Below are positions 58,045-58,711 of a DNA stretch of 64,000 bases, piece after piece. This DNA is from a phage, in sequence record PX068456.1; one strand, given 5' to 3'. Within the stretch, counting starts at the first letter, position 1, and each line of letters opens with the position of its first letter. A model generated the notes under the pieces. The model saw only the letters and a program-made list of their open reading frames with translations, searched no databases and had not been told where the DNA came from. The position numbers and the translations under genes were made by a program.

Positions 58045-58374
58045 CTAATTAGAAATTATTCCTTCGCTTTGTAATGTTTTAATATAGTTTTGCAAACTGA
58101 TAAGTTTTATCCTATCTTTTTCCCACAAAGCGTTGTTTAAAGTTTGATTATCAACTACCTCTGATCTTGTAACTCCTTTCTTTATTTGATTAGGAGTATA
58201 TAAAACAGGGGTAGATGGTTTCTCCATACTAACAGAATCAGGGGCTTTTATTTGTTGTGTTGCTACAGCTTTACACTGCTCAATCAGTAGAGGCTGGGAA
58301 GCTGTTGTTGATGATGCGCAACCCGTCATCATTAGGGCTAAAACAAGACATAGCGCCAGAAGATGTTTTCGCAT
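58045..58374 (-). CDS. o-spanin (outer-membrane lipoprotein spanin subunit)
   Basis: signal peptide with lipobox LMMTGC; start embedded out of frame in the 3' end of the upstream gene. Confidence 0.55.
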   Translation of the reverse strand: MRKHLLALCLVLALMMTGCASSTTASQPLLIEQCKAVATQQIKAPDSVSMEKPSTPVLYTPNQIKKGVTRSEVVDNQTLNNALWEKDRIKLISLQNYIKTLQSEGIISN

Positions 58375-58711
58375 AATCTATTCTCTCTTGTGTTATGTTA
58401 TTACTCTTCTTATCCAATTGTATAAGAAGATCATTTTTTTCTTTCGTTAATGAATGAATTTTTTCATTCAATTTAGATCTTTCTGAATCTGCTTTTGCTT
58501 GTAAAATATCGAATTGCTGTTTTGCTTTAATTTGGTTTTGTTGTAATATTTGTTCTTGTTTAGCAACACCTGCGTTGTAGCCTTGTGCATACACATCATC
58601 GTGTAATTTGTTTAAACCAACATACAAACCACCAAACAATGCTATAATAAGAACAAAATACCTAACCCATTTATTCTTCAGTAGGTTTATTAACATAGTC
58701 AGTATCATCAT
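58280..58711 (-). CDS. i-spanin (type II inner-membrane coiled-coil spanin subunit)
   Basis: N-terminal TM helix (YFVLIIALFGGLYVGL) then long coiled coil; overlaps the lipoprotein gene. Confidence 0.55.
   Translation of the reverse strand: MMILTMLINLLKNKWVRYFVLIIALFGGLYVGLNKLHDDVYAQGYNAGVAKQEQILQQNQIKAKQQFDILQAKADSERSKLNEKIHSLTKEKNDLLIQLDKKSNNITQERIDYAKTSSGAMSCFSPNDDGLRIINNSFPASTD

Follow-up and report, generated by a model that had tools for sequence, protein, structure and literature searches.

The window analysed here, a stretch of 64,000 nucleotides (64 kb; sequence record PX068456.1), is 99.7% identical to the genome of Escherichia phage PHB05 (Justusliebigvirus, Stephanstirmvirinae). 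On its minus strand, directly upstream of the gene for the large terminase subunit, lie two short genes (Table 1) that the initial annotation, made from the letters alone, had read as an i-spanin and an o-spanin. Both ORFs are present in the ORF list at the positions originally reported, and they overlap out of frame by 95 nt, the lipoprotein gene being in the +1 frame relative to the gene upstream of it, which is the architecture of an overlapped two-component spanin. The pair had also been labelled embedded, and this part of the label does not apply, because the o-spanin gene extends 235 nt beyond the i-spanin stop codon. Within the overlap, the +1 frame encodes the signal peptide and lipobox of the o-spanin, while the other frame encodes the best-conserved segment of the i-spanin: compared with phages phAPEC8 and phi1_175008, this tail is 68-74% identical and the remainder of the protein 35-49%.

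Table 1. Positions of the spanin pair and of the other features discussed, numbered along the 64-kb window.
Feature	Positions	Strand	Remarks
i-spanin (inner-membrane spanin subunit)	58280..58711	-	143 aa; PHROG 4297, SpaninDB phi92 match
o-spanin (outer-membrane lipoprotein subunit)	58045..58374	-	109-aa precursor; PHROG 1267, SpaninDB phi92 match
Dual-coding overlap, 95 nt	58280..58374	-	i-spanin residues 113-143 and o-spanin residues 1-32
Large terminase subunit gene	55952..58036	-	Terminase_6N, PHROG 979; directly downstream of the o-spanin
Terminator-like hairpin (59444-59420), then sigma-70-like promoter match (59397-59369)	59369..59444	-	consensus-only, weak
SleB/CwlJ-like cell-wall hydrolase, 169 aa	7715..8224	+	PF07486 E=7e-20; PHROG 938 'endolysin'
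Small membrane protein, 81 aa, holin candidate only	31944..32189	-	between baseplate-wedge and tail-spike genes

Hydropathy picks out a single segment of the i-spanin, at about residues 15-37 (mean of 1.84 on the Kyte-Doolittle scale over 19 residues), and this N-terminal transmembrane (TM) segment is flanked by K12, K14 and R17 on its N-terminal side and followed by D38 and D39. By the positive-inside rule, we infer an N-in/C-out topology; the TM, signal-peptide and lipoprotein calls made throughout this work come from hydropathy and motif rules. In the AlphaFold2 model the protein forms a continuous helix from residue 14 to residue 114 (pLDDT ~90), which takes in the TM segment, followed by a low-confidence tail, and the SpaninDB entry for the i-spanin of phage phi92 predicts a single coiled coil spanning residues 54-115. 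Together, the model and the database entry indicate a periplasmic domain that is mostly helical or coiled-coil. The protein has only one cysteine, Cys123, within the conserved C-terminal tail YAKTSSGAMSCFSPNDDGLRIINNSFP. There is no clear ribosome-binding site at its start, and M1, M2 or M6 could each be the initiating residue; the BME3 annotation begins at M6, and the phi92 record on this start reads 'No RBS identified'.

The o-spanin begins with MRKHLLALCLVLALMMTG/CAS (the slash marking the predicted cleavage point), that is, with a basic n-region and a hydrophobic core leading to the lipobox cysteine, Cys19. The lipobox itself reads LMMTG/C19, with Met at position -3, where Leu is more common, and with Ala, not Asp, at position +2, and for the phAPEC8 homologue SpaninDB records the lipobox as 'MMTG'. 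By motif, the protein thus carries a lipoprotein signal with no Asp at +2, and its lipobox and +2 Ala fit sorting of the predicted lipoprotein to the outer membrane. Besides the lipidation-site cysteine there is a further periplasmic cysteine, Cys34, which, like Cys123 of the i-spanin, is invariant in the alignments. AlphaFold2 predicted a confident C-terminal helix at residues 70-103, the structures predicted for both subunits being helical.

Comparison with curated families bore out the identity proposed for the pair. The PHROGs matched both proteins to 'Rz-like spanin' families, the i-spanin to phrog_4297 (E=5e-40) and the o-spanin to phrog_1267 (E=2e-20). In SpaninDB (Kongari 2018, PMC6139136) the phi92 pair was curated by hand under class 'ovl', with proteins of 143 and 109 aa, an overlap of 95 nt and the +1 frame. 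The o-spanin described here is identical to the phi92 entry at 109/109 residues (100%) and the i-spanin at 138/143 (97%), the five differences being conservative, located in the helix and tail, and of no substance. Lengths, overlap, frame and class are those of this phi92 entry, which belongs to the phi92/phAPEC8 family of SpaninDB, and in phi92, too, the pair lies upstream of the large terminase. Records of relatives name the two genes i-spanin and o-spanin. Since Pfam searches with both proteins gave sub-threshold noise only and no spanin family, the family assignment rests on the PHROGs and SpaninDB, and the predicted function of the pair in turn rests on homology and on topology signals. 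A search of 5.8 billion proteins returned nine homologues of the i-spanin and six of the o-spanin, all of them close relatives, so it reached no further.

That the spanins sit next to the terminase, and that neither a holin nor an endolysin adjoins them, had both been noted initially and both held: the large terminase gene follows downstream, and small ORFs and a tRNA array lie upstream. From the o-spanin stop codon to the GTG start of the terminase gene there are 8 nt (GAGGAGAT), and the ribosome-binding site of the terminase overlaps the stop codon. The short gap and the position of this site imply that the spanins and the large terminase are probably co-transcribed, in a late minus-strand packaging operon, and the same gene order is found in phi92, phAPEC8, phi1_175008 and BME3. 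The hairpin and promoter match upstream (Table 1) are a possible start for a unit that would span two small ORFs, the spanins and the terminase. Promoter-like sites did not exceed those in shuffled sequence (6 found, 7.7 expected), which makes the promoter scan uninformative; for terminator-like sites, 3 were found and 1.1 expected. As a separate observation, the P-loop of the large terminase carries an insertion; it gave no match to Pfam or to PDB sequences, and we describe it as intein-like from its exact insertion position and from comparison with an insert-free homologue.

The SleB-like hydrolase listed in Table 1 had been taken for the only recognisable muralytic enzyme. Within the 64-kb window this holds, and no muralytic Pfam domain was found in nine tail, baseplate and tape-measure proteins, including hub and spike. 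Genome-wide it does not, for a T4-type lysozyme is encoded about 26 kb past the window end. This T4 gpe-like protein of 166 aa is present in the near-identical genomes of PHB05 (gp055) and BME3 (122575-123075), from which we infer its presence in the exact genome studied here. The PHB05/BME3 lysozyme matches PF00959 (E=4e-12) and aligns with T4 lysozyme over residues 6-165, its full length (E ~1e-52). The motifs DEG, TDTEG and WTVGIG, which we take to be the catalytic motifs of lysozyme, are visible in its sequence, and it has neither a hydrophobic N-terminus nor an export signal (maximum hydropathy 0.63). The near-identical genomes, then, encode outside the window what looks like a canonical cytoplasmic endolysin of the T4 gpe/GH24 type. 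Similar lysozymes turned up in 1,900 phage records, in 56 of these with an identity of at least 95%, and the lysozymes of T4-like phages share about 50% identity with the one found in this group.

The SleB-like protein does have the domain and the signal sequence first ascribed to it. Its ORF starts with TTG and lies outside the spanin locus, in a plus-strand module with replication genes, and its product combines a Hydrolase_2 domain with a conserved Sec-type N-terminus, MSIKTFVAIALLSLTAFTFTPVVAQA/EA. This N-terminus is hydrophobic, and the conserved AQA/EA motif with Pro at -6 favours a cleaved signal peptide, the alternative being a SAR domain. Glu57 stands within the motif YAES, aligned with YGES of B. 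cereus SleB (structures 4f55 and 4fet), whose Glu is presumably the catalytic residue. The signal sequence and the cysteines C40 and C52 are invariant in 12 homologues, and the homologue of phage rV5, about 40% identical, has the same signal sequence and cysteines. Hydrolase_2 homologues occur in many phages as second hydrolases, for example in T5-like phages, which have another, characterised endolysin. Because the near-identical genomes encode the T4 gpe-type lysozyme outside the window, the SleB-like enzyme would likewise be a second hydrolase, accessory or alternative.

A holin was sought beside both hydrolase genes, and no TM protein was found next to either: a TM segment is missing from the 47-aa ORF upstream of the lysozyme gene and from the thioredoxin and PhoH that flank it, as it is from the ORFs on either side of the SleB-like gene (7020-7622 and 8235-8513). 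We identified here no T-type holin and no homologue of the RI/RIII antiholins. The small protein that had been described as 'holin-like', with two helices, has one clear TM segment (residues 22-40), a second, weaker segment and a charged C-terminus, and the family searches did not support the description: there was no match to a Pfam holin, and the sole PHROG match was 1322, 'membrane protein'. Homologues are found in 372 phage records. In BME3 and phi92 the gene adjoins the baseplate-wedge gene, in the baseplate/tail module, with neither hydrolase adjacent; the BME3 annotation calls the product 'membrane protein-holin'. A 113-aa membrane coiled-coil protein (27916-28257) was considered as a second i-spanin and set aside, its PHROG match being weak (E=9e-4). 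It counts among the holin candidates, as does a 68-aa protein with two helices that is encoded immediately upstream of the window (BME3 32943-33149).

With lambda Rz/Rz1 the pair shares its plan, an N-anchored helical inner-membrane subunit and an outer-membrane lipoprotein in the +1 frame, with periplasmic cysteines in both subunits; no sequence similarity to Rz/Rz1 was detected with Pfam. It differs in that Rz1 is fully embedded in Rz, whereas the genes described here overlap in part, and in its position, beside the terminase rather than within a holin-endolysin-spanin cassette. The proteins differ as well: the periplasmic domain of Rz1 is described as unstructured, whereas the o-spanin has about 90 aa when mature and a confidently predicted C-terminal helix, and in place of the two coiled-coil segments of the lambda type, AlphaFold2 gives one uninterrupted helix. 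T4 is another parallel, since its spanins PseT.3/PseT.2 are distant from holin and endolysin (e, t and the spanin genes being dispersed), its o-spanin is relatively large with a predicted C-terminal helix, and the endolysin of the present group is a homologue of T4 gpe. The T4 spanin genes are 'separated', however, while those of this pair overlap.

The Vequintavirinae offer a further comparison. In rV5, PVP-SE1 and CB7 the spanins adjoin the large terminase, outside a lysis cassette, although there the genes are separated, with overlapping stop and start codons, and not overlapped as here (PMC7344957). These phages also have a signal-peptide SleB-like hydrolase together with another lysin, and a distant holin candidate. 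In CB7 a two-helix membrane protein overlaps the SleB-like gene, a neighbour that the gene in the window does not have. The PF00959 lysozyme is considered the lysin of rV5, whose holin candidate lies far from it, as in T4 (PMC3606486). The dispersal of lysis genes that had been proposed at first was upheld, the genes being scattered across the genome as in T4 and rV5.

We consider it very likely that the locus is the two-component overlapped spanin of a Justusliebigvirus (phi92-like) coliphage with scattered lysis genes. On the lambda Rz/Rz1 and T4 PseT.3/PseT.2 models, both spanin subunits would accumulate late in infection, join through their C-terminal regions and bridge the periplasm as disulfide-linked dimers, restrained by the peptidoglycan mesh. 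Once an endolysin had destroyed the wall, fusion of the inner with the outer membrane by the spanins would set the phage free. The wall-degrading step would most simply be that of the cytoplasmic, holin-dependent T4 gpe-type lysozyme.

From a secreted endolysin, holin-independent export and an unusual control of lysis timing had been deduced. With a second muralytic enzyme in the genome, these do not follow, the premise of a sole enzyme being false. One can still suppose that the Sec-exported SleB-like hydrolase is the real or main endolysin, acting with no holin, with timing set not by the hole of a classical holin but, for example, by membrane depolarisation or activation of the enzyme, and with the spanins finishing lysis. 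We regard this as unlikely, although several observations speak for it: the Hydrolase_2 domain with Glu57 in its SleB-aligned motif, the retention of the signal sequence and of the two invariant cysteines in both Stephanstirmvirinae and rV5, the label of endolysin given to the protein by RefSeq and several authors, and the lack of a TM protein adjoining either hydrolase gene. In addition, expression of the CB7 homologue, CB7_83, which carries a signal peptide, is toxic to E. coli, and lysis is said to involve the CR3 homologue, CR3_087 (PMC7344957). Against it stand the full-length, signal-less lysozyme that is also encoded, the place of the SleB-like gene among plus-strand replication genes and not late genes, and the role of homologous Hydrolase_2 proteins as second hydrolases in many phages. 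Nor would such an enzyme be new in kind, for exported endolysins are already known, either of the SAR type or of a cleaved-signal type such as oenophage Lys44. A SAR endolysin treated in one preprint belongs to an unrelated siphovirus. More doubtful still is the specific proposal that a SleB-like protein with a cleaved signal, not a SAR domain, drives lysis in Stephanstirmvirinae and Vequintavirinae and stays inactive in the periplasm until triggered, the two invariant cysteines near Glu57 perhaps being the means. If it did drive lysis, the T4-type lysozyme would be redundant or have another role, the timing of the spanins would come only from late co-expression with the terminase, and these phages of Gram-negative hosts would form a group whose endolysin is exported by a cleaved signal and needs no holin.

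The reading of the locus as an overlapped spanin pair is supported by the conservation of the two genes. With tblastn, each spanin was found in 136 phage records, with nearly the same breakdown by organism and host. The overlapped arrangement is kept in relatives down to 34-36% identity (phAPEC8, phi1_175008, FBKp34 and KP13-16), and so are the TM segment, the lipobox cysteine and one periplasmic cysteine per protein; among relatives of 34-66% identity the +2 Ala is retained along with these signals, and the lipobox cysteine of the o-spanin is kept in five divergent homologues. With so many records, and with defining features that persist down to 34-36% identity, the conservation of the pair is more than chance would give. 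This bears on the view that the 109-aa frame is open by chance, or was wrongly called as a gene, and that only a single membrane protein is made. Many records indeed carry no annotation for it, the phi92 RefSeq has no CDS there, BME3 annotates a truncated start that lacks the signal peptide, and Pfam has no family for the protein. We nevertheless hold this to be very improbable: between genera the 109-aa protein is 64-67% identical, more than its partner (47-50%), its lipobox cysteine, second cysteine and C-terminal helix are retained down to 36% identity, it has its PHROG match, and an unannotated o-spanin CDS is a documented problem, affecting 196/528 systems.

It is just as improbable that the pair, wedged as it is in a packaging operon, acts at the membrane in packaging or morphogenesis and not in lysis, as the tight junction and co-transcription with the large terminase and the conserved synteny might suggest, since every defining topology signal of a spanin is present, FBKp34 and KP13-16 have a tRNA array between an intact pair and the terminase, and the accepted spanins of rV5, PVP-SE1, VP4 and SP6 also sit next to the terminase (PMC7344957).

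As a spanin the pair is an ordinary feature of the textbook overlapped type, and an already known one, having been curated by hand for phi92 and phAPEC8. That the lysis genes lie scattered in this group and in related phages is likewise in print, the same layout having been described for rV5, PVP-SE1 and CB7 (PMC7344957), for rV5 (PMC3606486) and for BME3 (PMC12210895). The value of the analysis lies in annotation: many genomes of the group omit the o-spanin or start it past the signal peptide, many give the name 'the endolysin' to the SleB-like protein, and in many deposited genomes the T4-type lysozyme, a stand-alone protein, is entered as 'baseplate hub subunit and tail lysozyme'. Such phages are under development for therapy and as lysin sources, and it is worth knowing that they have two different wall hydrolases.

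The two overlapping genes beside the large terminase were found on the minus strand where the initial annotation had placed them (see the table), and its i-spanin/o-spanin reading is borne out by matches to PHROG 4297 (E=5e-40) and PHROG 1267 (E=2e-20), both described as 'Rz-like spanin'; a Pfam search with both proteins returned no family. The genes have 95 nt in common, with the downstream one in the +1 frame. In the i-spanin, three basic residues stand before the single hydrophobic segment (about residues 15-37), and the sole cysteine is at position 123; AlphaFold2, run on an eight-sequence alignment, predicts an uninterrupted helix from 14 to 114 (pLDDT ~90) followed by a poorly defined tail. 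The o-spanin begins with MRKHLLALCLVLALMMTG/CAS, a lipoprotein signal with lipobox Cys19 and Ala at +2, and has a further cysteine at position 34 and, in its C-terminal half, a high-confidence predicted helix (residues 70-103). Between its stop codon and the GTG with which the large terminase starts lie only 8 nt (GAGGAGAT), and the ribosome-binding site of the terminase overlaps that stop codon. About 700 nt upstream of the spanin genes lie a promoter-like site and a hairpin resembling a terminator, the former given little weight because the promoter scan scored no higher than shuffled controls. The product of the ORF heading the operon (96-106 aa; PHROG 3330, a family of unknown function) has an acidic tail and, close to the N-terminus, the AT-hook-like motif KRGRGRP; since a small terminase is annotated nowhere in the group, we regard it as a candidate for that role.

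The pair is already known, an identical protein being present in SpaninDB. In the hand-curated set of 528 two-component spanins of Kongari et al. 2018 (PMC6139136), phi92 and phAPEC8 form one family per subunit. Their supplementary tables class the phi92 pair as 'ovl' and give 143 aa for the i-spanin, 109 aa for the o-spanin and a 95-nt overlap in the +1 frame, so the label 'embedded' used previously does not fit; 'MMTG' is listed there as the lipobox of the phAPEC8 homologue. Overlapped genes are the commonest of the three spanin architectures (228/528 systems; PMC6139136). Compared with the phi92 proteins, the o-spanin of the window is identical and the i-spanin matches at 138/143 residues, which means that this exact pair had been catalogued. 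Relatives carry annotation errors: the BME3 o-spanin CDS (6046-6330 of the BME3 stretch L001) is annotated from MTGC and so lacks its signal peptide, no o-spanin CDS is given at locus position 1508-1837 in the phi92 RefSeq record, and the PHB05 GenBank record labels both spanin genes hypothetical.

Holin-independent export and unusual lysis timing had been proposed, with a secreted SleB-like protein as the only recognisable muralytic enzyme. That enzyme is indeed of the Hydrolase_2 (SleB/CwlJ) type (PF07486, E=7e-20), and its N-terminus, MSIKTFVAIALLSLTAFTFTPVVAQA/EA, resembles a cleavable Sec signal peptide, as had been suggested. It aligns with B. cereus SleB structures, with Glu57, presumably the catalytic residue, within the aligned YAES/YGES motif; 12 homologues share the hydrophobic core, C40 and C52 without exception, and the rV5 protein (40% identical) has the same features. 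Within the window no other muralytic domain was found, nine tail, baseplate and tape-measure proteins giving none, but the claim of a single enzyme does not extend to the whole genome, as near-identical genomes encode a 166-aa lysozyme of the T4 gpe type. Its gene lies ~26 kb past the end of the window, at 122575-123075 in BME3 (PP239276.1; 22575-23075 of the stretch L004) and at 23598-24098 in PHB05 (NC_052652.1, gp055), where it adjoins PhoH. The protein matches T4 lysozyme over its full length (E ~1e-52) and also PF00959, shares ~50% identity with lysozymes from T4-like phages, and contains DEG, TDTEG and WTVGIG, which we take to be its catalytic motifs. No hydrophobic segment was found in it, and this stand-alone lysozyme is of the soluble type. 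Similar lysozymes occur in 1,900 phage records, 56 of them at >=95% identity and 77 at 60-90%. Many records label it 'baseplate hub subunit and tail lysozyme', a mislabelling that goes back to PHROG 430, in which gpe and the lysozyme domain of gp5 are combined. Its best PDB match is 7rgr, 'Artificial protein L056' (E=5e-69, full length), and not T4 lysozyme; the designed sequence is evidently close to the lysozyme of this phage group.

The 166-aa lysozyme probably serves this phage group as its genuine cytoplasmic endolysin. In rV5, a PF00959 protein was called the obvious lysin, with a holin candidate distant from it 'as in T4' (PMC3606486). At the genome level the premise of holin-independent lysis fails, and with a canonical holin-dependent endolysin available this mode of lysis need not be invoked. 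Buttimer et al. (PMC7344957) reported that a SleB-like hydrolase conserved in the Vequintavirinae has a signal peptide and proved toxic on expression in E. coli, and the CR3 homologue has been implicated in lysis (PMC7344957). Because of these reports on CB7 and CR3, we keep the model of the initial annotation, with the SleB-like enzyme as the working endolysin, among the readings, as an unlikely one, the lysozyme remaining the preferred candidate.

As stated in the initial annotation, no holin or endolysin gene adjoins the spanins. The 81-aa protein combines a charged C-terminus with one clear transmembrane segment and a second, weaker one; its sole match is PHROG 1322, 'membrane protein', with no holin family matched in Pfam or PHROGs, and 372 phage records contain a homologue, rV5-like phages and PVP-SE1 among them. 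Its gene adjoins a baseplate-wedge gene in BME3 and phi92, and since T4 t also lies beside tail-fibre genes, the protein may be a holin. Shortly before the window begins, BME3 encodes a 68-aa protein with two helices that is annotated 'holin'. For BME3, a member of Justusliebigvirus with 99% identity to the window, a lysozyme and a SleB homologue have been described as the two hydrolases, with no transmembrane protein adjacent, along with two class II holin candidates, both distant, of 61 and 81 residues (PMC12210895), the larger being the 81-aa protein of the window. The same dispersal is seen in the Vequintavirinae CB7 (a Pectobacterium phage), rV5 and PVP-SE1, whose spanin pair sits beside the large terminase and outside any lysis cassette (PMC7344957), and in T4, with spanins likewise far from e and t (PMC6139136). 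The position of the pair and the scattered lysis genes are thus already described for this and the sister subfamily. Between tail-fibre-assembly and tailspike genes, the window also holds the gene of a 113-aa protein whose transmembrane segment is N-terminal and whose remaining part is coiled-coil-like; it is annotated 'lipoprotein' (PHROG 15210) and weakly matches the Rz-like spanin PHROG 739 (E=9e-4); no lipobox was seen in its sequence, and it could be a holin/antiholin-type or fibre-associated protein.

The tblastn searches found each spanin in 136 phage records, and the two sets of records hardly differ in their make-up by organism and host. Four divergent relatives were compared, phAPEC8, Klebsiella phage phi1_175008, FBKp34 and KP13-16, whose i-spanins are 34-50% and o-spanins 36-66% identical to those of the window. 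In all four, both frames are open, the genes overlap, and each pair retains the transmembrane segment, the lipobox cysteine and, in either protein, one periplasmic cysteine. Conservation within the i-spanin is highest in the tail that the overlap encodes (68-74%, against 35-49% elsewhere, in phAPEC8 and phi1_175008), which dual coding together with a functional role would explain. The overlapping ORFs are more than chance; that a chance ORF stands in place of a real o-spanin gene is very hard to credit, and a packaging role for the pair, next to the terminase as it is, seems just as improbable. The topology signals, cysteines, helical predictions and operon position of the pair are established here and, by analogy with λ Rz/Rz1 and T4 PseT.3/PseT.2 as summarised in PMC6139136, the subunits would be made late, together with the packaging proteins; the i-spanin would insert into the inner membrane, and the o-spanin would be lipidated and sorted to the outer membrane. 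The two would bind across the periplasm as disulfide-linked dimers and, once the restraining peptidoglycan is removed, fuse the inner and outer membranes.

A 5-kb stretch around the spanins is 99.7% identical to Escherichia phage vB_EcoM_PHB05 and at least 95% identical to 56 phage records, coliphages nearly throughout. The relatives belong to Justusliebigvirus, subfamily Stephanstirmvirinae (phi92/phAPEC8 group). Genomes of the group measure ~147 kb, so the 64-kb window covers less than half of one. Several records named 'Campylobacter phage' with C. jejuni as host (MG065645.1, MG065689.1, MG065650.1 and MG065662.1) carry spanins and an 81-aa protein 98-100% identical to the coliphage versions, which suggests that coliphage genomes, mislabelled or contaminating, are present in that submission set.

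Features of the window discussed in the text
Feature	Position	Strand	Remarks
Plus-strand block	1 to ~20,600	+	tellurite-resistance-type genes, SleB-like gene, glycosyltransferases, primase/helicase, DNA polymerase
Ter-type cluster	384-7622	+	upstream part in BME3 30718-33149
TerC-like membrane protein	384-1361	+	Ter-type cluster
Predicted lipoprotein	1579-2184		201 aa
'Tellurite resistance' protein	3140-4243	+	Ter-type cluster
vWA-domain protein	5490-6284	+	Ter-type cluster
SleB-like hydrolase	7715-8224	+	169 aa
113-aa protein	27916-28257	-	
81-aa protein	31944-32189	-	holin candidate
102-aa ORF	32186-32494	-	
Late block		-	tail, baseplate, head, portal, terminase genes
Large terminase	55952-58036	-	
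Terminase insertion	57443-57910	-	residues 43-198
o-spanin	58045-58374	-	109 aa
i-spanin	58280-58711	-	143 aa
ORF heading the operon	59058-59378	-	PHROG 3330
tRNA array	59836-62712	-	16 tRNA genes incl. three tRNA-Met(CAT); directly upstream of spanin/terminase operon

In FBKp34 and KP13-16, tRNA genes sit between the spanins and the terminase. The Ter-type cluster, here in a lytic phage, also includes a 'stress protein' gene, with HAD phosphatase and phosphoribosyltransferase genes just upstream. The 201-aa predicted lipoprotein has the lipobox LLVG/C-D-D, whose Asp at +2 suggests inner-membrane retention. Immediately upstream of the 81-aa protein, the stand-alone 102-aa ORF matches many PHROGs of tailspikes and tail fibres (e.g. 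7992, E=5e-62), but just in their N-terminal anchor domain, and may be a free adaptor module or a spike-gene remnant.

The large terminase itself carries a 156-residue insertion exactly between the GGAAG and SGKS of its Walker A motif (YGGAAG/CVSAETEY…HIFVTGN/SGKSRLL). The first residue of the insertion is Cys, the last is Asn, and the next residue after it is Ser; in Klebsiella phage FBKp34 the terminase, otherwise 63% identical, is without the insertion, its loop reading GGAAGSGKS. The insertion was not recognised in Pfam and PDB sequence searches, and a literature search found it nowhere described for this phage group. It bears an intein signature and resembles a mini-intein. The same stretch of the terminase matches the long 'PhoH-like' PHROG 32482, which may carry a related insert.
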